Origin: a bacterium
GTDB lineage: Bacteria > Krumholzibacteriota > Krumholzibacteriia > G020349025
Direction: 5' to 3'
DNA length: 18,718 nt
Assembly: GCA_031362565.1 (NCBI GenBank)
Contig: JANLSU010000110.1
Span: forward strand, 1 to 18,718
The translations under genes were made by a program, and so were the position numbers. Below the pieces are notes generated by a model that saw only the letters and a list, made by a program, of their open reading frames with translations, was not told where the DNA came from and searched no databases. Shown here piece after piece: positions 1 to 18,452 of the stretch. Within the stretch, counting starts at the first letter, position 1. Every line of letters begins with the position of its first letter.

Positions 1-2208
1 CCATGCTGGGCAATCGATGGTTCACTTGTCGATTAGGGACCATGACATACCTCGGTTCGTTCGAAATGTCTGTGAATCCGACTGCTACTGACGTGTGACG
101 CAGTTCTCCTCGCTCTGTCTCCAACTGTCGCGCCACACGCAGGAGGACACGTCACCTCGCCGGGCTCCGCGACCGGTGAGGACCGTTGATGCACAGCCGT
201 AGGGTGCAAAACAACTGCACGCACGCTGCGTGATGTCGTGCGCGGGAACAGCTCTGGTTCCGAATGTATGAACACACTGCATCTTCTGAACAGACGATGT
301 CAACAGAATCCAGCACTCGCGATGGCGTAAGTAACAATAGTAACACTGCGTACGTATAATCAGCATTCGTGTGTCCGAGTTTGCACCACAATGGATCGTG
401 ATGGACAGGAGTCTCTCCGAACACCTTTGCGGCACCGTTCACCGAAAGAGTCGGTCCCGGACGAGGAAGTATTCGTCGCGCTTGATTTCCAATCTCGCCG
501 AGATAGTACGCTGGGCGAAGACGACATCTCCGGGGGTTAGTTTATCGAACATTCGTGCGATAGTTCCCGTCTAATGGTGTGTTTGTTCATACGCTGAGTT
601 GCGCACGCATTACTGGCACTAATCGGGGTGATCCGATCCACATCGCCGTCGACGACCTGGAGCCGCAGGAGGCCGCTCGACTTTCGACGTCGTCGCAGGG
701 AGGGAAACGTGCGGGCCAAGCCACTCGCCACTGAACCAGACTCGAAGCCTGTCGGTATTTGGATCCGTGTTTCCACGGAGGACCAGGCCCGGGGCGAGAG
801 CCCAGAACACCACGAACGCCGGGCAATGGCCTATGTCGAATCGAAGGGCTGGCGAGTCCGCGAGACGTACCACCTGGAAGGCGTTAGCGGGAAAGCGGTC
901 TCGGAGCACCCCGAGACCAAGCGGATGCTCGCAGACATCCGGTCTGGCCATATCTCGGGGTTGGTGTTCTCGAAGCTGGCGCGGCTCGCCCGAAACACCA
1001 AGGAACTCCTCGAGTTCGCCGATCGGTTCCGCGAGGCCGGCGCTGACCTCGTCAGCCTCCAGGAGTCCATCGACACGACGAGTCCGGCTGGCCGCCTCTT
1101 CTACACCATGATCGCTGGCATGGCGCAGTGGGAACGCGAGGAGATCGCCGAGCGCGTCGCCGTCTCCATCCCAATCCGTGCCAAGCTTGGCAAGCCGATC
1201 GCTGGCGCCCCACCCTTCGGCTACCACTGGGAGAGTCGTCAACTCGTCCCGCATCCCAAAGAAGCGCCGGTGCGGACACTCCTCCACGAGCTGTTCTTTG
1301 AGCACAAGCGTCGCAAAACCGTGGCGCGGCTCCTCAACGAACGCGGCTATCGCACCCGGAAGGGCGGCCTGTGGACGGACACGACCATTGAGCGTCTGCT
1401 CCGAGACCCCACCGCCAAAGGCGTGCGCCGCGCCAACTACACCCGTTCCCGGGGCCAGGGCAAAGGCTGGGATCTCAAGGCCGAACGCGACTGGGTCCTC
1501 GTCCCCTGCCCAGCGATCGTCTCCGAGGAACTCTGGACCGCTTGCGTCTCGATCCTCGACGCACGCCGCACCAAGGGCAAACGCGTCGGTCGCCCACCGG
1601 CCCACCTCTTCACCGGACTTGCGTACTGTCACTGTGGGCAGAAGCTCTACGTGCCGTCCAACATGCCGAAGTACGTCTGCTACCGGTGCCGCAACAAGAT
1701 CAAGATCGAAGACTTAGAAGCCGTCTTCCTCGACCAGCTCAAGGACTTCTTCCTCAACCCGGACCAAGTCGCCCAGTATGTCGACCAGTCTGACAATGTC
1801 CTCGAAGGCAAAGCCAAAGCCCTGGACGCCCTCCGGGCCGAAGAGACCAAGCTTCGCACGGAGATGGACCGGACCTATCGGCTCTACCAAGCCGACCAAA
1901 TCTCGGTCGAGGGCTTCGGGCACTTGTACCGCCCCTTGGAGGAGCGCCAGAAGCAGATTGAGGAGGAACTCCCGAGGCTGCAAGGCGAAGTCGATTACCT
2001 AAGGATCGACACCCTCTCACGGGCCGACGTCCTCGCCAGCGGCAAGGACCTCACGGCGCACTGGCCGGAGCTCACCGCCGAGGAACGGCGGCAGATCATC
2101 GAGGCCATGGTCGAGCGCATCGATGTGGGCAAGGACGATGTCGAATTCACCCTGCAGTACTCCCCGTCCCCTTCTGAAGCCGTGGTACAAAGGCAACGCA
2201 AACTCAGG
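1..2208. mobile_element. End of an integrative element (genomic island or prophage-like) inserted in comM/yifB; continues beyond the left edge of the window
   Basis: Large serine recombinase abuts the point where comM is truncated (minus strand ...GCA ATG AAC CCC TGA instead of ...AAMNPCPCG). Bases 1-620 are visibly more AT-rich than the rest of the window. Confidence 0.85.
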
Positions 2209-2376
2209 GGTTCATTGCCGCGACGAGTTGAAATCTTGCTGGATAGCATACGTTGTGGTTGGCGCGAGCGATCTGGATCGAGCCATCCTCGAGCGGCTGG
2301 CGCAGAAGATCCAAGAGATGACGCGGAAACTCCGGGAGTTCATCCAGAAATAAGACTCCCCGATGCGCCAGGGTGA
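709..2376 (+). CDS. Large serine recombinase/integrase (resolvase catalytic domain, recombinase domain, zinc ribbon, coiled coil)
   Basis: [10 protein letters not shown] catalytic-Ser motif, [28 protein letters not shown], and CHCG...YVCYRC zinc ribbon. GTG at 709 follows GGGAGGGAAAC (RBS) and is a better start than 628. The last ~55 codons read through the att site antisense to comM. Confidence 0.93.
2196..2216. other. Hybrid attachment junction (attL/attR) between the element and comM; crossover near 2204-2210
   Basis: ComM-like sequence ends at the Pro codon of AAMNP, and the expected Cys codon (TGY) reads TGA. The exact crossover cannot be fixed without the other end. Confidence 0.75.
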
Positions 2377-3280
2377 TCTCGCCGGGGGTCACCGGCCGGC
2401 CACCGCCAGCGAGACCCGCGATACTCACAGTGTGATGCGGAGCGCGGAACGGCCGGTCGATTTGCGCTGCCGCCGCCTGCGCGTGCCGCCCGCAGACCGA
2501 GAGAATTTGGCGCACTTCGATCGCTTCGGCATCGACGAGCGGCGGTAGAAGCGCCGGCATGCAGCGCGCCAGCATGCTCTTGCCGACGCCCGGTGGCCCG
2601 ACGAACAGCAGGTGATGGCCGCCGGCAGCGGCGATCGCCAGCGCGCGCTTCGCCGCTTCCTGGCCGTAGACTTGCGAGAGGTCCGGAGCTGTCGACGCCT
2701 CGGGCTGCGGGGGGACGTCGTCCGGCGCCGCTGACTCAACGGCGGCTCGTCGCGATCGCGCCGGTTCCTCACGACCATCGACCCATGCGACGGCGCTCGA
2801 GAGATGCGCGCAGCCGATGACTTCGACGCCGGTGACGAGGCGCGCTTCGGCGGCGTTTTGTTCCGGCACCAGCATCCGCCGCAATCCCAGCCGACGCAGG
2901 CCGGTGGCGATCGGCAACACGCCGCGCACCGGCCGCACCGAGCCGTCCAAAGCCAGCTCACCTAACACGCACGTGCCTTCGAGGCGCGCTGTTCGGCATT
3001 GCCCGGACGCGGCGAGCACGCCGAGTGCGATCGCCAGGTCGAACGCGGCGCCATCCTTGGGAACGTCGGCCGGCGCCAGGTTCACCGTCAGGCGCTTTTC
3101 AGGCAGCTCGAAGTCGCAGTTGGCGAGCGCCGCCACGACGCGTTCACGGCTCTCGCGCACCGCCAGGCTCGGCAGCCCGACAAGATGGAACGAGCGCAGG
3201 CCGCGCTGCAGGTCGATTTCGACCGCAACTCGCAAACCGTCCAAGCCGTGGACGGCGGCTGACGACACGGTTGCAAGCAT
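2204..3280 (-). pseudogene. comM: ComM/YifB Mg-chelatase-like AAA+ ATPase, 5' part (358 aa), interrupted by the integrative element
   Basis: [41 protein letters not shown], Walker [49 protein letters not shown]. The CPCG motif and C-terminal part of a typical ~500-aa ComM are missing. Confidence 0.92.
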
Positions 3281-3592
3281 CGCGGCAGGAGGACGCGAGG
3301 AAGACGGCGCTGCGTGCGCTCACGCAGGATCTGCGCCGAAGTCGCCGGGCGTGGGCCTACTTGCGGCGAGAAACGGTCGGCGACGTCGGCGATGAAGTCG
3401 GCGCCTTGCAATAGTCGCGACAGCCATCGCAAGGGGAACATGGCAGGCGGCGGGCGGCGGGCCTCGGTCACACGCGCACTCGGCTCGGATGTGAACACCG
3501 TCGACAGATCTCCGGCATCCCAGTTTACGAACGCCGCGCAGCTTTTTTCGAAAAACCAAGCCCGCACGGCCCATTTTCACGTACCGCCCGCG

Positions 3593-3607
3593 TGGCCCAT
3601 CTATTGC
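3593..3607 (+). promoter_or_regulatory. Putative sigma54 (-24/-12) promoter, module 1
   Basis: TGGCCC-ATCTA-TTGC has exact GG-N10-GC spacing (consensus TGGCAC-N5-TTGC). It recurs at 4018 with a different spacer. Predicted +1 is ~3619. Confidence 0.6.
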
Positions 3608-3618
3608 GAGTAACAGTG

Positions 3619-3667
3619 CGACCGTCGCGCCCCGGCACCGTCGAGTGCCGGAGTGTTCTTTGAAAAC
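3619..3667 (+). promoter_or_regulatory. Leader copy 1: hairpin (boxB-like) followed by boxA-like GTGTTCTTTGAAAAC
   Basis: Stem CCGGCAC/GTGCCGG at 3632-3651. The 15-mer at 3653-3667 is identical in copy 2 and resembles rrn boxA (TGTTCTTTGAAAA type). Confidence 0.55.
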
Positions 3668-4017
3668 CGGCCAGGGTTCGCCGCCGCGCCGATGTTCGTC
3701 GTAGTCGGCAACAGACAAACGACAGCGCAGACGTTTTCCATCTGCCTGCTACGCCGAGTTTCGATGCACCGGAAACCGATCGAACCTGTCCCGACGTTTT
3801 CCGTCCGTCTCGGGGTCGGCTCGGCGGGGCGACGGCGAGGGCGAGTGAACACTCGTTCTGGAACGAGCACTCGCAGGATAACACCGCCGCGCAGAGTTGC
3901 GACGGAGTGGACCCGGTGTCGACACGGTTGACAGGTCCCGTCACTCTGGTTGACGAATGACGGACGGCGACGTTGAAGAAACTCCACAGCAGCGCCATTT
4001 TTCGCGAGCATTTGGCG

Positions 4018-4032
4018 TGGCCCGCCTTTTGC
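4018..4032 (+). promoter_or_regulatory. Putative sigma54 (-24/-12) promoter, module 2
   Basis: TGGCCC-GCCTT-TTGC. Predicted +1 (~4044) coincides with the start of the conserved CGACCGTCG block, as in module 1. Confidence 0.6.
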
Positions 4033-4043
4033 GAACATTCATT

Positions 4044-4093
4044 CGACCGTCGATCCCCCGGCGCCATCGAGCGCCGGCGTGTTCTTTGAAAAC
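4044..4093 (+). promoter_or_regulatory. Leader copy 2: hairpin (boxB-like) followed by boxA-like GTGTTCTTTGAAAAC
   Basis: Stem CCGGCGC/GCGCCGG at 4058-4077, with a compensatory A-T to G-C change relative to copy 1. The boxA-like 15-mer is at 4079-4093. Confidence 0.55.
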
Positions 4094-4534
4094 AAGGCCG
4101 CGCTCGTCGTCGCGTTGTCTCGACCTGGGCCAGCCGCGCAGACGTTTTTCATCCGGAAGTGGCGTCGGGCAGTAGATTCACGCGAACCATGGCCAAGGAC
4201 GACTGTCCCGACGTGATCCGTCGTCACCCGACGCACAGCGCAGACGTTTTCCATCCAAGTGCTGCGTCCAGCCGCGGCGCAAGCGAACCACGGCCAGGGA
4301 CAACGGTCCCGACGTAATCCGAAAACGAGTCTAGTGTTTCGACGCACCCACTTCGTTCGCGATGGGCGAGCGGTGAAGGCGGCGCAGACGTTTTCCATCG
4401 AAATGCTGGGCCGGGTTGCGATGCACCTGAAACCCGACCGAACCTGTCCCGACGTCAGAACGTTTTACGCGCGGGCGCTGAACGCGGACGATTCGTTCTA
4501 TCGCTGACCACCCCGGCGCCCAGTGCGTTCACTG

Positions 4535-4786
4535 CTAGTTCGCCTTACGCCTTCGAGGCTTGTCAACGGCAGCAATCGTCGCTCGCAAGAGCGCATTCAC
4601 GCGCTTTGGGTCGCGAAAGACCTTGGCGACGTCGGAGTCGAGAACTACCACGACTGCATCCGAGGTTACGTCAGCTGCGAATCGATTGGGCCGCGACTTC
4701 TCGTAGTCGAGACGATACTCCCGCGCAAGTCCTTCGCGTCCCCGGCGGCGACCGCTAGCGCCGTTTGCCTTTTTCGTAGTCTTCAT
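4535..4786 (-). CDS. BrnA-like antitoxin (83 aa)
   Basis: LAREYRLDYEKSRPNRFA...VVVLDSDVAKVFRDPKRVNALLRA matches the pattern of small antitoxins found after BrnT genes. ATG at 4786 overlaps the 3' end of the BrnT remnant. Confidence 0.75.
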   Translation of the reverse strand: MKTTKKANGASGRRRGREGLAREYRLDYEKSRPNRFAADVTSDAVVVVLDSDVAKVFRDPKRVNALLRATIAAVDKPRRRKAN

Positions 4787-4864
4787 GTTCACCACGTGTC
4801 GACTTTCGAGCGCGGATGAGGCGCACCACACCATCCGCTCTGTGAAGAATACCAGGAGCAGCCA
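4755..4864 (-). pseudogene. BrnT-like ribonuclease toxin remnant (5'-truncated and frameshifted)
   Basis: LLLVFFTER in one frame continues as DGVVRLIRARKSTRGEHEDYEKGKRR* in another, consistent with a 1-nt deletion at ~4835. This resembles the BrnT C-terminus (LLVVFTER...IRIISARKAT..E...YE). There is an in-frame stop upstream and no N-terminal half. Confidence 0.7.
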
Positions 4865-5037
4865 CGATCATGGGCATGTCGGATGTGAGCCCGCAGACGT
4901 GTCCCATTCGGATGCCACGTCGAGTCGAGGTACACGGAAGTCCACTGCCAAGGGCGACTGTCCCGACGTTTTCCGTCGTGACCGGGGCCGCGGCGGCGAC
5001 TGCCGGCAGTGCTTGGGGCCGGGCGCGGCCCGGCGGT

Positions 5038-6144
5038 TTAGCCGTTGCCCTTCTTGGCGGGCGTGGCGGCTTGGCCTTTGACCTTGTCGGTTTCGGCGAG
5101 GCCCGAAACGACTTCGATCTGGATGCCGTCGGAGAGGCCGGTTGTGACTTCGCGGCGTTCGAATTTCTGGGGCGCGGTTTCGATTTCGACGAACTTCTTG
5201 TCGCCCTCGAACTGCAGGAGGCTTTCGCTAATGGCGAGCACTGAATCGCGGCGGTCGAGGACGATGTCGGCGTTGGCGCTGTAGTTGGCGCGGACGAGGA
5301 CGTCGGACTGCGGCTTGAGGGCGGCGCGGATTTCGAACTGAATGGCGCCGTCCTGGGCAGTGCCTTTGGGCGCGATGTGCTCGAGCGTCGCGTCCAGTTG
5401 GCGGCCCTGGATGGCGCCAATCGTCAAGAGGAGCGCCATGCCGGGCTTCAACTTGCCGACTTCCGATTCGTCGACTCGGCCCTTGAAGATCATGTCGTCC
5501 ATGTCGGCGATGGTGGCCAGCGTCGTGCCGGCGTTGAAATTGTTGGTTTCGGTGACCGAGTGCCCGACTTCGACGGGGACTTCGAGCACCATGCCAGCGA
5601 TCGTCGAGCGGACGAGGGTGTTGGTGACGGCGCCCGAGGTGTGCGAAATGCCCTTTTCGATGAGGCCCAGGTTGTCGTTCGCCGATGCGAGCTCGGCTTG
5701 GGCGTTTTGATAGGCCGTGTCGAACACTTGGAACGCGGCTTGGGAGATGACGCCGTCGTTGTGGAGCGTCGTGTTGCGCTCGAAATCCTTCTTGGCGTTT
5801 TCGAGGGTGATCTGGGCGCGGGCGACGCGATTCTGGGCGTTCGAGAGGTTCACCATGTCCGGCACGACACGAATGCGGGCGATGAGATCGCCGGCCTTCA
5901 CGGTGCGGCCTGTCTCGACATAGATCTCTTCGACGATGCCGGAAACGCGCGGCTTGATTTCGACTTCTTGCCGGGGCACGACAGCGCCGGTTGCCACCGC
6001 CTTGTTGACGATCGAGGTGCGTTTCGGCGCCTCGGTCTGGTACACGACTGCCGTCTTGTGCGACTTGGCCCATAGGAAATAGACCGTGCCCACGAAGAGC
6101 ACGAGGACCAGAACGCCGGCGAGGATGGAGAGAATCTTCTTCAT
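5038..6144 (-). CDS. Efflux periplasmic adaptor (membrane fusion protein), MacA/HlyD family
   Basis: N-terminal TM anchor, ATGAVVPRQEVEIKPRVSGIVEEIYV..G..VKAGDLIA lipoyl-like half, alpha-hairpin, VDESEVGKLKPG and VTTGLSDG. Confidence 0.92.
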   Translation of the reverse strand: MKKILSILAGVLVLVLFVGTVYFLWAKSHKTAVVYQTEAPKRTSIVNKAVATGAVVPRQEVEIKPRVSGIVEEIYVETGRTVKAGDLIARIRVVPDMVNLSNAQNRVARAQITLENAKKDFERNTTLHNDGVISQAAFQVFDTAYQNAQAELASANDNLGLIEKGISHTSGAVTNTLVRSTIAGMVLEVPVEVGHSVTETNNFNAGTTLATIADMDDMIFKGRVDESEVGKLKPGMALLLTIGAIQGRQLDATLEHIAPKGTAQDGAIQFEIRAALKPQSDVLVRANYSANADIVLDRRDSVLAISESLLQFEGDKKFVEIETAPQKFERREVTTGLSDGIQIEVVSGLAETDKVKGQAATPAKKGNG

Positions 6145-6191
6145 GAGTCAGAACCCTCGGCTTTCGATCGACATGTGGGTTGGAATCTCCG

Positions 6192-7463
6192 TCATTCGCT
6201 GCGTAAGGCGACAATCGGACTGACTTGCACGGCGCGCTGGGCCGGGGCGAGGCCGGCGAGGACACCGGCGCCGACGAGAATGGCGAGGGCGCGCAATGCC
6301 TCGGCAACACCGACATCCGGGTTGGTGAACATCCGGGCGCCATCGCCCGATGGCAGCAAGCGCGCGACGATTTCGATGACTCCAATGCCGGCGACGAGGC
6401 CAAGGTAGCCCGCGACCGCCGTCAAGATCACCGATTCGAACACGATCTGGCCGACCACTGCCGAGGGCGTCGCGCCCACCGCGCGCCGGATACCGATTTC
6501 CTTGGTGCGTTCCTTGACGATGATCAGCATGACGTTCGAAACGCCGATCGCACCCGCCGCCAGCGTGCCGATGCCGACGAGCCACACCAGGATGCGAATG
6601 CCACGGAAGAGCCCGCCGACCTTTTCGTATTCTTCTTCCAGGTTGAAGTGGCCGAAGGCGCGCAGATCATCCGGCGCCACCTTGTGGCGCGACTTGAGAA
6701 GTTGCAGCACCTTTTCTTCGGCCACCGAGGCCCGCACCTCCGGACGCGACACGACCGCCATCCATCCCACCCGGCCGCCGAAGTTGAAGGCGCGCTGGAA
6801 CGTCGTGAAGGGTACGTACACGGTTTGCGTGTCGCGCTCCCCGTCTTCGCCCGACTGCATCGACTTGAAGACGCCGATGACCTGAAAATAGACGCCCTGG
6901 ATGACGATGGATTGACCGATGGTGTTTTCACCCGGCCGGAAGAGCACATCCCGAACGCGAGTGCCGATGACCGCCACTTTGCGCGTCTCCTCGAGGTCGA
7001 TCGGGTTCAGAAACCGCCCGGCCTCGACGTGAATCGACTGGACGCGCTGGATTTCCGGGTAGTCGCCCATGACGCTGAAGCCGCCCGACTTGCGGCCGCG
7101 CGTCACGTTGTTGCCGCCCTGGAACCCGCCCAGTTGGGCGCGCGGCGCGACGATTTCCACTTCGGGAACTTTATCGCGGATCGCCTGCACATCCTGATTG
7201 TCGAGTTGCACGCGGCGCCCGGCCGGCATGCCGGCGTACGGCTTCTGAGTGCGCTGCGTCCACAGGAAGAAACTGTTGGTGGCACTGCCCGCAAAGCCGC
7301 GCATGACGCCGTTCCGAAGCCCCGCCCCCGACCCGATCATCACCATGAGCAGGAAGATCCCCCAGAACACCCCGAAGGCGGTCAGCCCGGTACGCAGGCG
7401 ATTGCGCAGAAGCGCCGCCTTGATCTCCTGCCAATGGTCGAGGTCGAAGAGCGATGCAAACAT
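6192..7463 (-). CDS. ABC transporter permease, MacB/FtsX family
   Basis: RNRLRTGLTAFGVFWGI, periplasmic MacB domain and GVSNVMLIIVKERTKEIGIRRAVGA. Likely start ATG 7463 (MFASLFDLDHWQEI). Confidence 0.92.
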   Translation of the reverse strand: MFASLFDLDHWQEIKAALLRNRLRTGLTAFGVFWGIFLLMVMIGSGAGLRNGVMRGFAGSATNSFFLWTQRTQKPYAGMPAGRRVQLDNQDVQAIRDKVPEVEIVAPRAQLGGFQGGNNVTRGRKSGGFSVMGDYPEIQRVQSIHVEAGRFLNPIDLEETRKVAVIGTRVRDVLFRPGENTIGQSIVIQGVYFQVIGVFKSMQSGEDGERDTQTVYVPFTTFQRAFNFGGRVGWMAVVSRPEVRASVAEEKVLQLLKSRHKVAPDDLRAFGHFNLEEEYEKVGGLFRGIRILVWLVGIGTLAAGAIGVSNVMLIIVKERTKEIGIRRAVGATPSAVVGQIVFESVILTAVAGYLGLVAGIGVIEIVARLLPSGDGARMFTNPDVGVAEALRALAILVGAGVLAGLAPAQRAVQVSPIVALRSE

Positions 7464-7470
7464 GATTCCC

Positions 7471-8703
7471 CTACTCGTCGCGCAGCGCTTCGACGGGCCG
7501 CACGGCTGCCGCCCGGCGCGCCGGAATGAAGCCCGCGATCGCGCCGGCCACGACCAACAGCACCGTCGCCGACACCGCAACGCCGAGATTCACTTCCGGA
7601 TTGCGGAAGAAATCCGAACCTTGAATGGCGTGCGCCATGAGTTGCAGAACGCCGACGCCTGCCACCAGTCCAAAGTAGCCCGCGACACTGGTCACGAGCA
7701 CGGCTTCCTGCAGCACGAGCCGCATGACCGACCAAGGGGTCGCGCCCAGGGCCTTGCGAATGCCGATCTCCTTGGTGCGCTCCTTGACGGCGATCATCAT
7801 GATGTTGGACACACCGACGACGCCCGCCAGCAAGGTGCCGATGCCGATCACCCAGACAAAGAGCCGAATGCCGCTCATGAGCCCCATGAAGCGCTGGAAT
7901 TCGACGACCGCGTTGTAGATGGTGACCGCCCGCTGGTCGTCGGGATCGAAGGAATGGCGCGCCGCAATGCGCTCCCGCAAACCAGCGGTGATCGCCTTGC
8001 TCTGTTCGACCGATGCGTCACCCACCGTCAGCATCATCATTCCAACCCGGTTGGCGCCATTGAACGTACGCTGCGCGGTCGAAATCGGCAGGTAGAGCGT
8101 TTCCGATTCGTTTTCGCCGCCCTCATCGGTGAACACGCCGACGACCCGGAACGGAATGCCGTTGACCCGGATATATTCGCCGATCGCCGCCTGCCCCTTG
8201 AAGAGCTGCGCTTTGATCCGGTCGCCAATCACCGCCACCTTGCGAAACTCGCCAATGTCCGTGTCGTTGATGAACCGGCCTTCGGTAATGATCGTTTTCT
8301 CGAGGAACCGGTGGTCCGGGTGCACCGAGCGCACGTTGTAGCTCGAAGTCTCGCGCCCGTAGGCGACGGTCAGATTGCCAGGAATGAAAAACCGCGAGGT
8401 GATGTGTTCGACCCCCGCCACCCCGTCCTTGATGGACGAATAGTCCTCGTTGGTGAACTGCACGAAGCGTCCCGGCGGCATCCCATGGTAGGGCGTGCTC
8501 GTTTGGCCGCTGCGAATGAAGACGCTGTTCGTGGCGTCGTCGCGGAACCCATACTCGACGCCGTGCGCCAGTCCCTGCCCCGAACCCAGGAGCACGACCA
8601 GCATGAGAATGCCCCAGGCGACGCTGAAGCCCGTCAGCGCCGTCCGGAGCTTGTTCTTACGCAGGGTGTCGAGGATTTCTTGCCAGACATCGAGATCGAA
8701 CAT
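7471..8703 (-). CDS. ABC transporter permease, MacB/FtsX family (paralog of the downstream gene)
   Basis: KNKLRTALTGFSVAWGI, GVSNIMMIAVKERTKEIGIRKALGA and PARRAAAVRPVEALRDE. Likely start ATG 8703. Confidence 0.92.
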   Translation of the reverse strand: MFDLDVWQEILDTLRKNKLRTALTGFSVAWGILMLVVLLGSGQGLAHGVEYGFRDDATNSVFIRSGQTSTPYHGMPPGRFVQFTNEDYSSIKDGVAGVEHITSRFFIPGNLTVAYGRETSSYNVRSVHPDHRFLEKTIITEGRFINDTDIGEFRKVAVIGDRIKAQLFKGQAAIGEYIRVNGIPFRVVGVFTDEGGENESETLYLPISTAQRTFNGANRVGMMMLTVGDASVEQSKAITAGLRERIAARHSFDPDDQRAVTIYNAVVEFQRFMGLMSGIRLFVWVIGIGTLLAGVVGVSNIMMIAVKERTKEIGIRKALGATPWSVMRLVLQEAVLVTSVAGYFGLVAGVGVLQLMAHAIQGSDFFRNPEVNLGVAVSATVLLVVAGAIAGFIPARRAAAVRPVEALRDE

Positions 8704-8710
8704 GCGAAGG

Positions 8711-9436
8711 TCAGCCCCTCCCGTCGGTCTCGATGAGCCCATCGCGCAAGCGAATGACGCGCTGGGTCAAGGCCGCAATCTCGCGCTCGTGCGTCACGAT
8801 GATCATGGTGACCCCGCCGGCGTTGATGCCGCGCAACACGTCCATCACTTCGAGGGAAGTCTGTGAATCGAGCGCCCCGGTGGGCTCGTCGGCCAAGATG
8901 ACTTTGGGTTCGGAAATGAGGGCGCGGGCGATCGCCACCCGCTGCTGCTGCCCGCCCGACAGCTCGCGCGGCAGGTGCCCCGCCCAGTCCGCCAGTCCAA
9001 CACGATCCAGATACTCGGCGGCCCGCCGCATCCGCTCGCCGCGCCGCACCCCGCGATAATAAAGCGGCATCGCGACGTTCTCGAGTGCCGTCTTGAAGGC
9101 GATCAAATTGAAGGATTGAAAAATGAACCCCAGCAGTTGGCCGCGCAGGATGGCGGCCCGGGTCTCCGACAGGTTCTTGACGAGCTGGCCGTCAAGGACA
9201 TATTCACCGGCGTCGTAATTGTCGAGGAGCCCGACGACGTTCAAGAGCGTCGACTTCCCCGAGCCCGACGCCCCCATGATCGACACCAGCTCGCCGGACC
9301 CGATATCCAGGTCGATGCCCTTGAGCACATGCAGCGTGTTGGCGCCCATGGCGTAGCTCTTGTGGAGCCCGCTCATGCGCAGCATGGCGGCTTTGCCGTT
9401 CCCGGTGGTGTGCGTCGAAGCCGCCGAAGTCCCCAT
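8711..9436 (-). CDS. ABC transporter ATP-binding protein (MacB/LolD-like)
   Basis: Walker A GASGSGKST, signature LSGGQQQRVAIARAL, Walker B ILADEPTGALD and VTHE. The start may be ATG 9385. Confidence 0.95.
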   Translation of the reverse strand: MGTSAASTHTTGNGKAAMLRMSGLHKSYAMGANTLHVLKGIDLDIGSGELVSIMGASGSGKSTLLNVVGLLDNYDAGEYVLDGQLVKNLSETRAAILRGQLLGFIFQSFNLIAFKTALENVAMPLYYRGVRRGERMRRAAEYLDRVGLADWAGHLPRELSGGQQQRVAIARALISEPKVILADEPTGALDSQTSLEVMDVLRGINAGGVTMIIVTHEREIAALTQRVIRLRDGLIETDGRG

Positions 9437-9508
9437 GCGAGCAGTTTACGCGGTTCGGGGAGCGAAGGTTACTGGGGGGGGAGGATGCCCGGCCTCCCCC
9501 GACCCCCG

Positions 9509-9531
9509 ACGGGCCGGCTCCGCCGGCCCGT
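9509..9531. terminator. GC-rich hairpin just after the response regulator stop (possible terminator or processing stem)
   Basis: ACGGGCCGGC-TCC-GCCGGCCCGT, a 10-bp perfect stem with no U-tract on the minus strand. Confidence 0.4.
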
Positions 9532-9533
9532 AA

Positions 9534-10970
9534 CTAGGGCGTCGAGTCGGGATCAATTCCCAGCTCCCGCATCTTGCGATAGAGGTTCGGGCGTTGCATT
9601 CCCAGACGCTCGGCGGCATGTGTCATGTTGCCGCCGGCATCGCGCAGCGCCTTGCGCACCATGTCGCGCTCGAGCTTGTCGCGCGCTTCGCGGAGCGCGA
9701 GCCCGTGCACGTAGTGGTCGAGCCAGTCGCCACCTTTGCTGGCGGCGGCCGGGGCGTTGAGCTGCAGGTGTGTGGAATCCAGAACGCCGTCCCGCGCGAA
9801 CAGGCTGGCTTGGGTCAGCACGTTTTCCAGTTCGCGGACGTTGCGCGGCCAGGAGTGCTCCATCAACTTGGCGAGCGCGGCTTCTGTCACCCGCGGCTTG
9901 CCGCCATCCGGATAGAGCTTCTGCAAGCAGTGCTCGACCAGGATCGGGATGTCCTCCTTGCGCTCGCGAAGCGGTGGCAGGGCGATCGTAATGACGTCGA
10001 GCCGCGCGAACAGGTCTTCCCGAAACCGGCCTTCCTCGACCGCCGACAACAGATTTTGATTGGTCGCTGCCACGATGCGCACATCGGTCGTCCGCGCCAA
10101 GTTTTCGCCGATGCGCTTGTACTCGCGCAGTTCGATGGCGCGCAGCAACTTGGGCTGCGTATCGAGCGGCATGTCGCCGATTTCGTCTAGGAACAGCGTG
10201 CTGCCGTTGGCCTCCTCGAAAATGCCGCGGCGGTCCTCGGTGGCGCCGGTGAACGACCCATGCTTGTGCCCGAAGAGCTCGCTCTCGATGAGCGCATGCG
10301 ACAGCGACGTGCAATTGATCGTGAACAGCGGCCGGTCACGCCGGGCGCTGGCATAGTGGATGGCGCGCGCCACCAGTTCCTTGCCGGTGCCGCTTTCGCC
10401 GCGTACAAGCACCGTATGGTTGGTGCCGGCGGCCAGCACGATGCGGTCGAACACGGCGCGCATCGGCAAGCTCTGGCCGACGATCTGCGACGGTCCATAG
10501 CGCGTTTGCACTTGGTTGCGAAGCAGCAGGTTGTCGGTCGCCAAGCGGCGGTTCTCGCGCGCCAGTCGCCGGCCGACCAAAGCGCGCTCGAGGCGCAGGC
10601 GAAGCTCGCTCAAGCCGGTTCCCTTGTTGATGTAGTCGACGGCGCCGGCCTGCATCGCCTCGACGGCATTCTCGATCGAAGCGTAACCGGTGATCGCCAG
10701 CACCGCAGCATCGGGATCCAAACGGCGCGCTTGACGAATCACCTCGATGCCGCACTCGAGCTGCGCGGGTTCGCCGTCAGCGCGCGGCAATTCCATGTCG
10801 GTGATCACCACGTCGAATGGCGTCTGCTCGAGCAGCGCGCGTGCCGCCGCTACGGTGTGCGCCTCCTGCGTCGCGTGCCCGAGCTTCTGCAGGGTCATCA
10901 CCATCGCGGCGCGGTGCGCCCGGTTGTCATCCACGACCAGGGTCTGGATGGGCTCTAACGATTTGGTCAC
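9534..10970 (-). CDS. Sigma54-dependent response regulator, NtrC/AtoC family (REC, AAA+, Fis HTH)
   Basis: VVDD and TDMELP receiver motifs, GESGTGKELVARAIH, ESELFGH..GSFTGA, LFLDEIGD, FREDLF, WPRNVRELEN and a C-terminal HTH. GTG start overlaps the kinase stop (GTGA). Confidence 0.96.
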   Translation of the reverse strand: MTKSLEPIQTLVVDDNRAHRAAMVMTLQKLGHATQEAHTVAAARALLEQTPFDVVITDMELPRADGEPAQLECGIEVIRQARRLDPDAAVLAITGYASIENAVEAMQAGAVDYINKGTGLSELRLRLERALVGRRLARENRRLATDNLLLRNQVQTRYGPSQIVGQSLPMRAVFDRIVLAAGTNHTVLVRGESGTGKELVARAIHYASARRDRPLFTINCTSLSHALIESELFGHKHGSFTGATEDRRGIFEEANGSTLFLDEIGDMPLDTQPKLLRAIELREYKRIGENLARTTDVRIVAATNQNLLSAVEEGRFREDLFARLDVITIALPPLRERKEDIPILVEHCLQKLYPDGGKPRVTEAALAKLMEHSWPRNVRELENVLTQASLFARDGVLDSTHLQLNAPAAASKGGDWLDHYVHGLALREARDKLERDMVRKALRDAGGNMTHAAERLGMQRPNLYRKMRELGIDPDSTP

Positions 10971-13198
10971 TCGGGTTCCTCCCCACGCCGGCCGGGCGGC
11001 AACACGACGGTGAAACGCGTCCCGGCACCCACTTCCGACTTGAAGCTCACACGTCCGCCGTGGCTCTCGACGATCTTCCGCACGATCGGCAAGCCCAGGC
11101 CCGTGCCCGCGTCCGCCTTGGTGGTGAAAAACAACGAAAACACTTGTTCGCCGATCTCGGCGGGAATGCCTGCGCCATCGTCCTCGAAGTGCACCATGTA
11201 GTGGCCCACCGGCGCGATGCCGTTGGTGCTGCGTTCGACGACGATGCGCAAGTGGCCGCCCGCCGGCGCCGCCTCGATGGCGTTGTTGATCAGGTTCTGG
11301 AACGCATCGCGAATTTGGCGCCGGTCGGCCTGCACCGGTGCCAGGTGTGGTTCCGACTCGATGCGCAGTTGAATCTGTTTGTCGCGAATTCTCTGGCCCG
11401 CGAACGCCAGCGCTTCGTCCACGACTTGCTGCAGATCACAGTCCGACATTTCCAGAATCGGGTCGCGCGCGTACTCGCGCAGTTCGTCGATCTTGCGGTA
11501 CAGGCTCTCGATTTCGTCCACCATGCAGTCGATCGCCCGGCCCGCGTCACCATGCGGATCGATTTCCTCGCGGACGTTTTCGACATAGAGCCGCAAACCG
11601 CCGAGCGAGTTGCGGATCTCATGCCCAAGCCGCGCCGCGATCTCGCCGATGGCCGCCAGACGCGCCCGGCGCTCGTCCTCCTGTGCGACACGAACGCGCT
11701 CGGTGATATCCGTGAAGGTGAGCAAGTAGCACCGCGCCATCCCCGGTTCCGAACTTTGATCATCGAGCGCCGCGACCGAGAGATCGAAAATGCGATCGGG
11801 AACCGCCTCATCATGCGATTCCACGAGCGCCGCCACATGCACCGGGCGGACGCATGCCGACTCGGCATCCGTTGCCTCTTGGCGGCGCCGGACTTCGTCG
11901 ATCGTCGCCAAGGCCACCGGGCTCCGGGCGAAAAGATCCTGCAGCGATTGGCCGGGCAGCGCCGCTTCGTCGCAGCCCAAGAGTTGCGCGGCCCGCAGGT
12001 TCGCCTTCAAGATGCGCCCGTCGAAGTCTGCAACCAAGAGGCCGCTCGTCGTCGACGACAGGATGAGATCATCGAGGCGCCCGAGACGCGCCATTTCAGC
12101 CACCAGGGCGCGATTGCGATTGCGATAGGTATACAACGGGCAGACGAGCGTTGCAATTTGGAGGGCGGCGATCGGACCCACGAAGTCGAGCCACGCGCCT
12201 TGCCACACGAAGGCAATCTTCTCGGTGACGAAATACGCCACCATGAGCGCGAGGCCCATGCCCACACCGCGCAACGGCGTCAAGCGCGTCATCCACAGCG
12301 CGCCGGCCAGCAGGAACAACCAGTTGATCACGAATTGCAGCAAGCGCGGCGCCGGCTGCAGAAATCGCCCTGAGAGAATCGTTTCGACCGCCGCACCCAG
12401 CACGTGCACCTCGGCCGCTTGCGGTGTCAGCGGCGTCGAATACGAACGCCCAGCGGCGCGCGATGTCGTACCCAGGAGCACCGGGTGCCCGGCCACGGCG
12501 TCGCGCTTGAAACGCCCGGCGGCGACGGTGGAAAGCGCCAAATCGGCACCGTTCTGTTTGCGATAGTTGACGAGCATGCGGCCTTGAGCATCGATCGGGA
12601 TGCGCCGCACCCGCGCCAGATCGATCTGGTGCCCAAGCTGCACCTGCACGTCGCCGGGCGCGATGCCGAGATGCTCGCACGCAACGGCCAGCGCAAACGT
12701 CGGCGTAAAGCCGTCCGCCGCCCGCACGACGAGCGGCATGCGCCGCACGACGCCGTCCTGATCGCGCTCGAGCGCAACGTCCGCCTGGCGCGCCGCGTCG
12801 AACCGCCCGCCCGCCACCACGGTGGCATTCCCCGCCGCGACCACGACCCGCAGACGCCGGTAGTCCGCCCCGAGTTGGAGGGCCGTCGTATCGACGGGCG
12901 CCCAATCGAGGTCGAGACCGAGGGTCGTGACATCGCTGGCCCGCAGGTGCTCGATCGCGTCGGCGTAGGCGCCAAACGGCCAGGGTCCGAGCCCAGTCGC
13001 GGCCAGGCTCTCGTCATCGACGGCGACGGTCACGACGGTCGGCGGGTTCGCACGCCGGGCCCAGAGCTCACGGAGCCGGAAACGGAGATCGAGGGTTTGC
13101 AGTTCGAAGACCTGCAAAGGACCCAACGGCAGGAGGGCTGCACCGGCCAGGCCCGCGGAGAGTGCCGCCACACCCAGAACGAATCGATTCCTACGCAC
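10967..13198 (-). CDS. Sensor histidine kinase: CHASE2, 3 TM, PAS, HisKA, HATPase
   Basis: ELQTLDLRFRLR, VAVDDESLA..G.WP, DQDGVVRRMPL and IPIDAQGRMLVNY (CHASE2); H-box LGHEIRNSLGG, NLINNAIEA, DDGAGI, FFTTK, GTGLGL. GTG at 13198 has GGAGG 7 nt upstream; the ORF-track extension to 13639 looks spurious. Confidence 0.93.
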   Translation of the reverse strand: MRRNRFVLGVAALSAGLAGAALLPLGPLQVFELQTLDLRFRLRELWARRANPPTVVTVAVDDESLAATGLGPWPFGAYADAIEHLRASDVTTLGLDLDWAPVDTTALQLGADYRRLRVVVAAGNATVVAGGRFDAARQADVALERDQDGVVRRMPLVVRAADGFTPTFALAVACEHLGIAPGDVQVQLGHQIDLARVRRIPIDAQGRMLVNYRKQNGADLALSTVAAGRFKRDAVAGHPVLLGTTSRAAGRSYSTPLTPQAAEVHVLGAAVETILSGRFLQPAPRLLQFVINWLFLLAGALWMTRLTPLRGVGMGLALMVAYFVTEKIAFVWQGAWLDFVGPIAALQIATLVCPLYTYRNRNRALVAEMARLGRLDDLILSSTTSGLLVADFDGRILKANLRAAQLLGCDEAALPGQSLQDLFARSPVALATIDEVRRRQEATDAESACVRPVHVAALVESHDEAVPDRIFDLSVAALDDQSSEPGMARCYLLTFTDITERVRVAQEDERRARLAAIGEIAARLGHEIRNSLGGLRLYVENVREEIDPHGDAGRAIDCMVDEIESLYRKIDELREYARDPILEMSDCDLQQVVDEALAFAGQRIRDKQIQLRIESEPHLAPVQADRRQIRDAFQNLINNAIEAAPAGGHLRIVVERSTNGIAPVGHYMVHFEDDGAGIPAEIGEQVFSLFFTTKADAGTGLGLPIVRKIVESHGGRVSFKSEVGAGTRFTVVLPPGRRGEEPE

Positions 13199-13319
13199 CC
13201 AAGCGCCTCCGCGGCACGGGCTCAAATTCGGACACGGACGGACGCGCGTCACCCTTGGAGACGCACCCGCCGCATCACCCTCAAAAAAGGAAGGCCGGCC
13301 GGCCCTGCGTTCGCTCAAC

Positions 13320-13334
13320 GCAACACCTATACCA
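13320..13334 (-). promoter_or_regulatory. Putative sigma54 promoter for the kinase/regulator operon
   Basis: Minus strand TGGTAT-AGGTG-TTGC with GG-N10-GC spacing, ~120 nt upstream of the GTG start. Confidence 0.55.
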
Positions 13335-13633
13335 GACCAGCGCCGGCAGCCGCGCGGGTTGGGTGCCTGCGAATCGTTGCGCAGCCCGCGGTTACAGCGC
13401 GCTGGCGGGCCGGTGGCCGAGCCCGACGCTTGGACGGCACCTTGGTAGCGTATCGAGTCGAGACGATGTGACGCCGATTTGATACACAAGCGCCGGGCGC
13501 CAGGCGGCCCCGATGCACCGCATCCCCCCGCCCCGAGCAACCTGCACGCGACCGCGACAACGCACCATTTCACGATGAGATACGCGACGCGCTTCACATC
13601 TTGTGCGAGGCATTCGGCGGGCTGCGCACAGAA

Positions 13634-13648
13634 CGGCACGCGTGATGC
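13634..13648 (+). promoter_or_regulatory. Putative sigma54 promoter (divergent) upstream of a structured RNA candidate
   Basis: CGGCAC-GCGTG-ATGC with GG-N10-GC spacing. Predicted +1 is ~13660. Confidence 0.45.
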
Positions 13649-17225: not shown

Positions 17226-18452
17226 TCAAGCGGCCTCCTGGATCGTGACTTCGTAGCCGAGATCGCGGAGTCTGCGTGTGAGGTGCTGGGCGATCCGGGT
17301 TCGATCACGTTGCACGAAGTGGTCGGGGCCGAGATCTTGATACGCGACGCCATCTCGGAGCATGTAGTAGATCGCCGTCAGCATGGAAGCTGCGACTGCC
17401 ACAGCCGCTTTTTTGGACCCTCCGCGGGATCGAATCCGGCGAAACAGCGATTGCAAATACGTTCCGTCGGTGCGTGATGCTGCCCATCCACACTGCACGA
17501 GCACTGGCTTGAGCCACTGACTGCTCTTGCGGATGCGAGTCGATCGTCGCTTGCCAGCGCTTTCGTCCATGCGCGGACACAGCCCTGCCCACGAAACCAG
17601 ATGCGCCGCGGTTGGGAAACGAGTCATGTCGGTGCCGATCTCCGCCAAGATGACTCGCGACGAGGCAATGCTGATGCCTGGCATTGTCATCAGAATGGCG
17701 GCTTCGGCTTGAAAGGGTTCGAGAGTCGACTCGATCTGCCCTTCACACTCCCGTACCACCTCGCCAAGGCTGTCGATCATCCGCAGGTGCTGGCGAAGCA
17801 GAAAACGGTGGTGAGGCCGCACGCGCCCGTGAAGGGCTTCCTCTAAGGATTCCCTCGAGCACTTCAGTCGATGGTTGCCCAGCGCTGCCAGCCGCTTGGG
17901 ATCTGTTTCCCCCGCGACTATCGCATCGAGCATTGCCCGGCCACTTAACCCAAGCACATTCGAGATGACCGAATCGAGCTTGATGTTGCAATCCTCGAGG
18001 ATCCGCTGCACTCGCTGTGTGTGCTGCACGACCTCGCGGAGTAGCTGTCGACGCGTGCGCGTCAAGTCGCGCAGTTCCTGAATCACGGGCGGCGGTACGA
18101 AACTACTGCGAATCAGCCCACAAGCCAACAGCTGAGCAATCCAGGTCGCATCGTTTACATCGCTCTTGCGACCAGGCACATTGTGAATATGCGCCGCGTT
18201 CGCAAGCACCAGTTCGAAGTCACCCTCCAAGACGTGCCACACCGGCTTCCAGTACGGCCCGGTTGCCTCCATCGCGACGATCGTGCACTCCACCTCGCGG
18301 AGCCAGTCGGACAGTTCCATCAGGCCCCGCGTTGTTGTCGCGAAGGTGCGCACCTCCTGACGCAAATTCGCACCCGAGCCGACTCGCCGACACGCAACGA
18401 CCGTCCTCTTGTGTACGTCTAAACCCGCGCAACGTGCATGCAGCGTATCCAC
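17226..18452 (-). CDS. IS110-family transposase (bridge recombinase)
   Basis: DEDD RuvC-like motifs GLDVHK, MEATGPYW and KSDVNDA; Tnp domain PGI...ILAEIG...F.TAAHLVSWAGLCPRMDESAGK with the catalytic Ser. Confidence 0.96.
   Translation of the reverse strand: MDTLHARCAGLDVHKRTVVACRRVGSGANLRQEVRTFATTTRGLMELSDWLREVECTIVAMEATGPYWKPVWHVLEGDFELVLANAAHIHNVPGRKSDVNDATWIAQLLACGLIRSSFVPPPVIQELRDLTRTRRQLLREVVQHTQRVQRILEDCNIKLDSVISNVLGLSGRAMLDAIVAGETDPKRLAALGNHRLKCSRESLEEALHGRVRPHHRFLLRQHLRMIDSLGEVVRECEGQIESTLEPFQAEAAILMTMPGISIASSRVILAEIGTDMTRFPTAAHLVSWAGLCPRMDESAGKRRSTRIRKSSQWLKPVLVQCGWAASRTDGTYLQSLFRRIRSRGGSKKAAVAVAASMLTAIYYMLRDGVAYQDLGPDHFVQRDRTRIAQHLTRRLRDLGYEVTIQEAA

Follow-up and report, generated by a model that had tools for sequence, protein, structure and literature searches.

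The antitermination site of bacterial ribosomal RNA (rrn) operons is made up of a boxB-like hairpin and a boxA word, and works with NusB/S10, NusA, NusG and SuhB. Antitermination through boxA is usually seen as a property of these operons, with a few exceptions, and boxA is also found ahead of CRISPR (clustered regularly interspaced short palindromic repeats) arrays. Sigma-54 promoters follow a -24/-12 consensus of the type TGGCAC-N5-TTGC, in which GG and GC doublets keep a fixed spacing. Among sigma-54-dependent regulatory RNAs, CrcZ/CrcY, NrsZ and Qrr1-5 have repeated motifs or occur in many gene copies; they are no longer than a few hundred bases, are bounded by terminators, and their protein partners are known. 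Multi-copy HNH repeats are represented by the mycobacterial REP13E12 family. Outside rrn operons, one published account places boxA in the suhB leader (PMC5725501). The present analysis concerns two modules of ~100 nucleotides (nt) and the repeat arrays behind them in the window, that is, the whole analysed stretch of 18,718 nucleotides, itself one stretch of a 5.4-Mb genome in 133 contigs (G000, hereafter the own genome). Each module joins a promoter of sigma-54 type to a leader composed of a start block, a hairpin and boxA, and is followed by units in which two words, A and B, are parted by a linker. The best explanation, to which we give about an even chance, is that the window modules are gene-less derivatives of a sigma-54-driven selfish cassette that would give rise to a Rho-resistant untranslated RNA, any use of that RNA as a decoy being left out of this estimate.

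The sequence-only reading of this DNA had described two such modules and five A-linker-B units, and direct reading together with a repeat finder places all of them, with their parts, as follows.

3489..3533 (approximate to a few bases), + strand: upstream conserved sites of module 1, GTGAAC..TCGACAG..GTTTACGA, from an 11-copy alignment
3593..3607, + strand: sigma-54-type -24/-12 element of module 1, TGGCCCATCTATTGC, TGGCCC-N5-TTGC
3619..3667, + strand: leader of module 1 as a whole (start block, hairpin, boxA)
3619-3627, + strand: start block of module 1, CGACCGTCG
3632-3651, + strand: boxB-like hairpin of module 1, CCGGCAC-CGTCGA-GTGCCGG
3654-3667, + strand: boxA of module 1, TGTTCTTTGAAAAC; longer word GTGTTCTTTGAAAAC at 3653-3667
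3725..3805, + strand: unit 1, with A at 3725-3742, a linker and B at 3786-3805
3852..3883, no strand assigned: palindrome CTCGTTCTGGAACGAG plus GCAGGATAACA, 166 nt upstream of module 2, candidate enhancer
3914..3958 (approximate), + strand: upstream conserved sites of module 2, GGTGTCGAC..TTGACAG..GTTGACGA
4018..4032, + strand: sigma-54-type -24/-12 element of module 2, TGGCCCGCCTTTTGC
4044..4093, + strand: leader of module 2 as a whole (start block, hairpin, boxA)
4044-4052, + strand: start block of module 2, CGACCGTCG
4058-4077, + strand: boxB-like hairpin of module 2, CCGGCGC-CATCGA-GCGCCGG
4080-4093, + strand: boxA of module 2; longer word GTGTTCTTTGAAAAC at 4079-4093
4136..4222, + strand: unit 2, with A at 4136-4153 and B at 4203-4222
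4238..4321, + strand: unit 3, with A at 4238-4255 and a B-like word at 4304-4321 (CGGTCCCGACGTAATCCG)
4382..4455, + strand: unit 4, with A at 4382-4399 and B at 4444-4455, the tail of B diverged
4891..4977, + strand: unit 5, with a diverged A at 4891-4908 and B at 4958-4977

The module, taken as upstream sites, TGGCCC-N5-TTGC, a start block, a 7-bp hairpin and GTGTTCTTTGAAAA, belongs to a larger family. Candidates came first from a regular-expression search, and a covariance model built from ten module copies, applied with a cut-off of E<=1e-3, recovered 17 copies in the own genome, including the window copies at E 5e-18 and 3e-16; four further, diverged copies (C128b, C126b, C12 and C75) were found by eye and with BLAST. 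The search of this genome and its relatives, as proposed by the sequence-only reading, could thus be answered with 21 own copies, one related metagenome contig and none in 60 relatives scanned with the covariance model. The longer boxA word GTGTTCTTTGAAAAC, allowing at most one mismatch, has 5 matches in the 5.4-Mb genome versus 0 for a reversed control. The metagenome contig (L096, 1,554 nt) carries the upstream sites, TGGCCC-N5-TTGC, the hairpin and an exact boxA, followed by a B-like word, A, B, A and B. Since its module is ~75% identical to those of the own genome and its flanking gene shows 56% amino-acid identity, this contig comes from a related but different organism, and one of its A words is identical to that of the window. 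A wider pattern, TGGC-N7-TTGC-N40-56-TGTTCTTTGAAAA, gave 25 scattered matches in unrelated taxa among 185,579 species genomes (own genome excluded), by pattern match alone, and no related family was evident among them. We have little doubt that the modules form a real promoter and leader family.

In the aligned copies, conserved blocks (upstream sites, -24/-12 element, start block, hairpin and boxA) are parted by variable spacers. The GG-N10-GC spacing is held in 20 of the 21 own copies and in the metagenome contig, one copy (C42) having N11 instead; this count was scripted, then corrected by eye for C86 and C42, with C75 taken from a separate reading. The upstream consensus of the family, GTGTCAAC-N5-GACAG-N~14-GTTGACGA, lies at about -115 to -70 in the 11-copy alignment and is followed by an A/T-rich stretch and then CCGCAGAGCC before the -24/-12 element, while the block TTCGACCG sits at the expected transcription start. 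The upstream sites of modules 1 and 2 are candidate sites for an activator or a DNA-bending protein. A second candidate enhancer is the perfect palindrome CTCGTTC-NN-GAACGAG, which is found 170-280 nt upstream of most family promoters and at 23 places in the genome with at most one mismatch, often joined to a CRP-like TTGTGAA-N4-TTCACAA and to GCAAGATAACA. Other positions of the palindrome are within arrays and, in a single HNH gene, the 3' end (C126:84323). The own genome holds one rpoN gene (Sigma54_DBD) and 22 full-length sigma-54 activator genes with strong Sigma54_activat matches, none of which consistently adjoins the modules. Given the exact doublet spacing and the conserved upstream sites, the -24/-12 signature noted earlier is borne out at the level of sequence, and it is highly probable that these promoters are of the sigma-54 type.

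The sequence-only reading had also proposed that copies losing the spacing or boxA would point to a generic element of the MITE (miniature inverted-repeat transposable element) or REP (repetitive extragenic palindromic) type. That pattern is seen only in part: the spacing is lost in only one of the 21 copies; boxA is absent from nine, four of which have translated cargo. As for features of such elements, the copies are dispersed, lying between unrelated housekeeping genes at the 16 loci examined, A and B are direct repeats, and no terminal inverted repeats were seen, the ends of the element not being delimited. No recombinase stands consistently beside these 16 loci.

The leader closely resembles the antitermination sites of the host's own rrn operon, in which a hairpin is followed by CTGCTCTTTGAAAACTG ahead of the 16S gene and by GGGTGCTCTTTGACAATCG ahead of the 23S gene. 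The module boxA TGTTCTTTGAAAAC matches the rrn leader word TGCTCTTTGAAAAC at 13 of 14 bases, and the strict pattern TG[CT]TCTTTGA[AC]AA has six matches genome-wide, two in the rrn operon and four in modules; the remaining boxA-bearing modules differ from it by one or two bases. The element in the 16S-23S spacer aligns with the modules column for column, with a 6-7-bp stem, a loop ending in UCGAG, a 3-nt gap and boxA. The comparison with the host's boxA therefore upholds the likeness to an antitermination site that had been read from the hairpin and the following word. Relative to the gamma-proteobacterial consensus GYTCTTTAANA (PMC5725501), both the module boxA and the host rrn boxA differ at one position, and in the same way.

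The compensatory base-pair change reported between the window hairpins was seen again, as one G-C to A-U double change, and a covariation test extended it to the family. Across 18 copies, 92% of the cells are paired and four of the seven pairs show double changes, and in none of 500 shuffles was the observed score attained, for copies that are kin; when the partner column is slid, pairing falls to 27-46%. The covariation is thus support for the hairpin, not proof. Genes for Rho and NusB are present in the genome, and we lean towards boxA acting as an antitermination site.

The same leader allows a different reading, in which the module itself is the gene: a sigma-54-dependent small RNA, ~55 nt long, would begin at CGACCG and stop at an intrinsic terminator formed by the hairpin and GUGUUCUUU, the downstream sequence being unrelated. 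The 5' block CGACCG is conserved, and in a simple scan the two hairpins were flagged as terminator-like, each with a G+C-rich stem of 7 bp and a tail rich in U. However, the U run is interrupted and begins 2-3 nt after the stem. The terminator interpretation of the hairpin is rated low because conservation extends through GAAAA, needed by boxA and not by a terminator, because the same arrangement of hairpin, gap and word occurs inside the rrn operon, where termination is impossible, and because gene-bearing members keep the hairpin directly upstream of a ribosome-binding site. A short terminated RNA is accordingly a very improbable account of the module.

Family promoters differ in what lies behind them. 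Four members have a Shine-Dalgarno word and a real open reading frame (ORF), and none of these has boxA.

C126:83221-84390: cargo of copy C126b, an intact 389-aa HNH endonuclease gene of a second HNH family; -24 word CGGC
C75:20072-21193: cargo of copy C75, an intact 389-aa HNH endonuclease gene of the same second family; -24 word CGGC
C70: a 75-codon truncated version of the 389-aa HNH gene
C89:62000-64100: an antitoxin-like ORF and a ParE toxin gene (Pfam-confirmed), divergent from lexA

The two intact 389-aa endonucleases are 82% identical. The module had been taken as a head special to repeat arrays, which these members contradict, because it also heads HNH endonuclease genes and a ParE pair, there without boxA. 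With at most two mismatches allowed, boxA is found in 0 of 4 members with translated cargo versus 13 of 18 gene-less ones (17 own copies and the metagenome contig), and a Fisher test by hand gives ~0.017 for copies that are not independent. The link of boxA with untranslated cargo is therefore suggestive. As the gene-bearing members have a ribosome-binding site in place of boxA, the window modules are most readily understood as derivatives, now gene-less, of a selfish cassette driven by sigma-54. The family as a whole resembles a selfish HNH cassette equipped with a sigma-54 promoter of its own, most of its copies being gene-less. At the lexA-proximal locus (C89), two B words were also observed between lexA and a RecA-fold, imuA-like gene.

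The array words point to HNH genes as well, this time to a family of larger ones. One ~20-nt word with the core GACGTnnTCC(A/G)TC underlies both A (GCGCAGACGTTTTCCATC) and B (ACTGTCCCGACGTnATCCGTC), which are its two versions. Both are specific to the own genome. At up to one mismatch, the B word GTCCCGACGTNNTCCGTC has 30 matches in the genome versus 0 for the reversed control, with single one-mismatch matches in two of six same-family genomes; the A word has 11 matches in the own genome and single one-mismatch matches in 3 of 207 other genomes of the phylum. In IMG/VR, the A and B words, of 16 and 15 bases, gave single scattered matches only, at 13 and 81 loci, which are judged to be at chance level. 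A and B lie downstream of 13 family promoters and in the same orientation. Pairwise identity between copies is 0.86 for A and 0.85 for B, partly built in by the matching that found the units, and 0.55 for linkers versus 0.48 for shuffled linkers. The linkers measure 34-50 nt and fall into related subtypes; they have no second match in the genome and none in phage or plasmid collections.

A or B also occurs in sense inside four paralogous HNH endonuclease genes of 733-852 codons, so the words are not the private bipartite RNA repeat that the sequence-only reading had taken them for.

C83:14769-17258: large HNH paralog, A read as (A)(D/N)VF
C14:6599-8599: large HNH paralog, A read as (A)(D/N)VF
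C70:109724-111865: large HNH paralog, B read as PTVPTFSV
C60:27873-30179: large HNH paralog, B read as PTVPTFSV

In the first two genes, A stands just before a conserved (L/M)RFRxP segment; in the other two, B lies ~ten codons upstream of the A position and is read in another frame. The paralogs of the nearest genus carry CCGGACGTTTTCC or CCAGACGTTTGC at the corresponding codons, which indicates that the A/B word began as coding sequence; in two same-family genomes, the relatives' own junction word is not amplified. This large HNH family (P0001) matches no Pfam family at E<=1e-3; its only likeness to the IscB model is a 27-bit match in the HNH portion of that model. Each of the six same-family genomes holds it in several copies and in a fragmented state (28 matches in G001), and many of the fragments lie at contig ends. 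Beyond the words themselves, arrays and HNH genes have at most ~27 bases after B in common.

Several side observations concern these words. At C12:38000-38450 and C74:4100-4330, a sigma-70-like promoter and a 5' leader of large-HNH type (CTCCTCCC..GAGAAGATTCC) are joined almost directly to B words, and both loci look like deletion derivatives of HNH genes, from the 5' leader to B. At C12, three B words with a 45-nt period are divergent from the family promoter and downstream of the different, sigma-70-like one. A G+C-rich element with a strong hairpin, ..CACGTCTTCGGGGGTGTGGGACCCCCGA.., was seen at the far end of arrays and near contig ends (C16 ~11400-11480, C96 ~60-130, C133 ~25020-25060).

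The distribution of the word within and outside HNH genes bears on a DNA-level role, in which A and B would be a recognition or crossover site for a nuclease or recombinase, perhaps the HNH enzymes themselves, and the arrays would be landing pads or donor cassettes, opened for recombination by enhancer-driven, antiterminated transcription. In its favour, the same word is kept at the nucleotide level in two reading frames inside HNH genes, two further A words in the C83 gene bound an inserted segment absent from its paralogs, homology boundaries at the word are sharp, and B is where the deletion derivatives stop. However, the two words are repeated directly rather than inverted, A and the reverse complement of B share only ACGT, the lack of a consistent neighbouring recombinase tells against it, and the linkers have no counterpart in HNH genes. 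A site acting as DNA is therefore considered improbable.

In the cassette interpretation, the arrays are untranslated. In one frame, A encodes (S)ADVFH and B encodes CPDV(I/F)R, and the suggestion that the units specify these repeated peptides draws on differences between copies that are synonymous in that frame (GAC>GAT, TTC>TTT, GTT>GTC, and any of the four bases as third letter of the Val codon) and on window units 1, 2 and 5 being in frame. However, a possible hairpin loop has these variable bases at its centre as well. Only 8 of 15 units keep A and B in frame with each other (5 being expected by chance), and one of the eight contains a stop. There is no ATG, GTG or TTG in that frame after boxA, whose own TGA closes it, and two of the HNH paralogs read the word in another frame. 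On these three grounds the arrays are quite likely untranslated, as first supposed, and repeated peptides are an extremely unlikely product.

As regards described RNA classes, Rfam 15 gave no match in window 3400-5000 even at E<=10, the nearest being a chance-level match at 3334-3391 (-), and a tRNA/tmRNA search of the region found none. The absence of any Rfam family and of CRISPR features agrees with the earlier statement that the arrays are neither rRNA nor CRISPR and fit no described RNA family. A CRISPR array was rejected because two words alternate instead of one identical repeat, the linkers are related, and no cas family was found by Pfam on the window genes. A sponge of the CsrB/RsmZ type was set aside, GGA being absent from the + strand A/B core and present only in its reverse complement, with no excess folding. 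Integron attC sites have core sites RYYYAAC ... GTTRRRY in inverted arrangement; GTT(T/A)TCC points the same way in A and B and no inverse core accompanies it, and this class was rejected as well. In type III toxin-antitoxin systems, a ToxI-like RNA is built of ~36-nt tandem repeats and shares an operon with the toxin gene, which it immediately precedes. At C128:18530-18700, four A-type words form a 37-nt tandem repeat behind a family promoter without hairpin and boxA, but the ORFs called downstream gave no Pfam family, and a ToxI-like RNA was likewise discarded.

Under the cassette interpretation, an enhancer-binding protein at the conserved upstream sites would act on sigma-54 RNA polymerase at TGGCCC-N5-TTGC, and transcription would begin near the conserved CGACCG block. 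The hairpin and boxA of the nascent RNA, a near copy of the host rrn spacer element, would in gene-less members load an antitermination complex based on NusB/S10, with which the polymerase could cross several hundred bases of untranslated sequence without being stopped by Rho. The arrays would most likely be made as long, unstructured, untranslated RNAs displaying many sense A/B words. It is further conceivable that these RNAs serve as decoys for a factor acting on the A/B word in the HNH genes or their messages; this is the account we prefer for the retention of boxA and of many sense words in gene-less copies, though we infer such a role with considerable doubt. Processing into small RNAs and a protein sponge, both considered in the sequence-only reading, are likewise conjectural. 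More specifically, the arrays, transcribed from a signal-activated sigma-54 promoter, might be target mimics that titrate a protein or RNA acting on the HNH word, so that the cell, or the selfish element itself, could switch the nuclease genes on or off through a bank of fragments, which we regard as unlikely.

The main rival is that the loci are inert debris, that is, decaying mosaic remains of selfish HNH cassettes after repeated insertion, deletion and gene conversion, with incidental transcription and with words kept alike by recombination or by nuclease cutting and repair and not through an RNA function. This is a real possibility, if a somewhat doubtful one, and several observations weigh on its side or against the cassette interpretation. 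The family is confined to one lineage, and intact, truncated and gene-less members stand side by side. Its pieces (palindrome, upstream sites, A and B) occur in mosaic orders, including a tandem A-only run (37-nt period, C128) and a B-only run (45-nt period, C12); confinement to one lineage and mosaic order are both common traits of repeats that are selfish or in decay. The C12 and C74 loci look like HNH genes deleted from the 5' leader to the B word, homology to HNH genes stops sharply at the word, and every one of the six same-family genomes has numerous, fragmented HNH copies. The arrays are also unstructured: RNAalifold on the 15 A-linker-B units, on both strands, returned trivial pairs only and no consensus structure; the 437-nt predicted transcript of module 2 folds no better than shuffles (z 0.01 on the + strand, -0.25 on the - strand); and the strand signals of a small GACG/CGTC hairpin in A/B conflict, most A copies having C.A mismatches on the + strand and some B copies having them on the - strand. 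Against the cassette interpretation stand further the five gene-less members that lack boxA and the terminator-like appearance of the leader hairpin in both modules. Some of the numbers, too, flatter the case: the Fisher figure overstates independence, the copies being paralogs, the shuffle control of the hairpin does so likewise, with copies that are kin and an alignment fitted to the model, and the high identity of A and B is partly a product of how the units were found. On the other hand, debris does not readily account for a promoter, hairpin and boxA conserved in blocks with compensatory changes and variable spacers, for boxA only where the cargo is untranslated, or for one A word identical in a second organism whose modules are only ~75% identical.

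The surroundings of the modules within the window are composed of the following genes.

628-2376, + strand: large serine recombinase gene, 582 aa, overlapping the truncated comM/YifB-type gene (Pfam)
2204-3280, - strand: comM/YifB-type gene, ending after 358 codons within its Mg_chelatase domain (Pfam)
4535-4786, - strand: BrnA-like antitoxin gene, between units 4 and 5, antisense to the predicted transcript of module 2
4755-4877, - strand: BrnT toxin remnant of 40 codons, between units 4 and 5, antisense to the predicted transcript of module 2
5038-13639, - strand: genes to the right of the arrays, all in one direction, for a CHASE2-PAS histidine kinase, an NtrC-type sigma-54 activator, an ABC ATPase, two MacB/FtsX permeases and an HlyD-type adaptor (Pfam)
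9534-10970, - strand: the NtrC-type sigma-54 activator gene of that run (Pfam Sigma54_activat), one of 22 in the genome and showing no link to the modules
17226-18452, - strand: IS110-family transposase gene (DEDD_Tnp_IS110 and Transposase_20)

The comM/YifB-type gene and the serine recombinase (window 628-3280) resemble a mobile element integrated into comM, and the minus-strand run at 5038-13639 is convergent with the predicted transcript of module 2. Of the toxin-antitoxin cassette reported before the fifth unit, the BrnA-like gene is there and the BrnT toxin is reduced to its remnant. Neither has a Pfam match, and both match weakly (E 1e-4 and 2e-5) the Pfam-confirmed BrnT/BrnA pair on C16. 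A pair of this type lies antisense to and downstream of a boxA-bearing module at two loci, C16:12380-12690 (intact) and window 4535-4877 (degenerate), and the module transcript would therefore be antisense to BrnT/BrnA at both.

Taken as a whole, about a dozen enhancer-dependent promoters of this organism appear to have received a copy of its rrn hairpin and boxA, in each case ahead of an untranslated transcript. If this is true, the family, known from one uncultured lineage and one metagenome contig, offers a natural experiment on the conditions under which a bacterium has to shield a transcript from Rho. It also ties together sigma-54 control and a multi-copy selfish HNH nuclease cassette, which are not usually linked, and raises the testable idea that fragments of selfish genes are kept and transcribed as decoys. 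A literature search for the combination of sigma-54, boxA and small RNA found no paper.

With degenerating selfish HNH or homing-endonuclease genes and REP13E12, the family shares multi-copy HNH genes in intact, truncated and fragmentary copies, and gene-less derivatives that keep the flanking signals; to our knowledge, sigma-54 control, an rrn-type boxA and arrays of a coding-sequence word are not features of such elements. CrcZ/CrcY, NrsZ and Qrr1-5 resemble the modules in their enhancer-dependent promoter, untranslated RNA, short repeated words and several loci per genome, whereas the word of the arrays lacks GGA and A-rich motifs on the plus strand and stands behind an additional boxA leader. 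In the suhB leader and ahead of CRISPR arrays, as proposed for the modules, boxA controls the action of Rho on a transcript other than rRNA, and in the CRISPR case that transcript is, as here, a long series of repeats without translation; in contrast, the modules have no adjacent cas genes and two alternating words, with linkers that are interrelated and have no other match in the genome or in the phage and plasmid collections. The closest likeness is to the rrn leader and spacer sites. Although the modules have a sigma-54-type promoter, no rRNA or tRNA behind them, ~13 boxA copies outside rrn and a putative Nus binding, they share with these sites the hairpin, the 3-nt gap and TG(C/T)TCTTTGA(A/C)AA, aligned column for column with the host spacer element, and a boxA that stands near the promoter, ahead of a predicted untranslated RNA.

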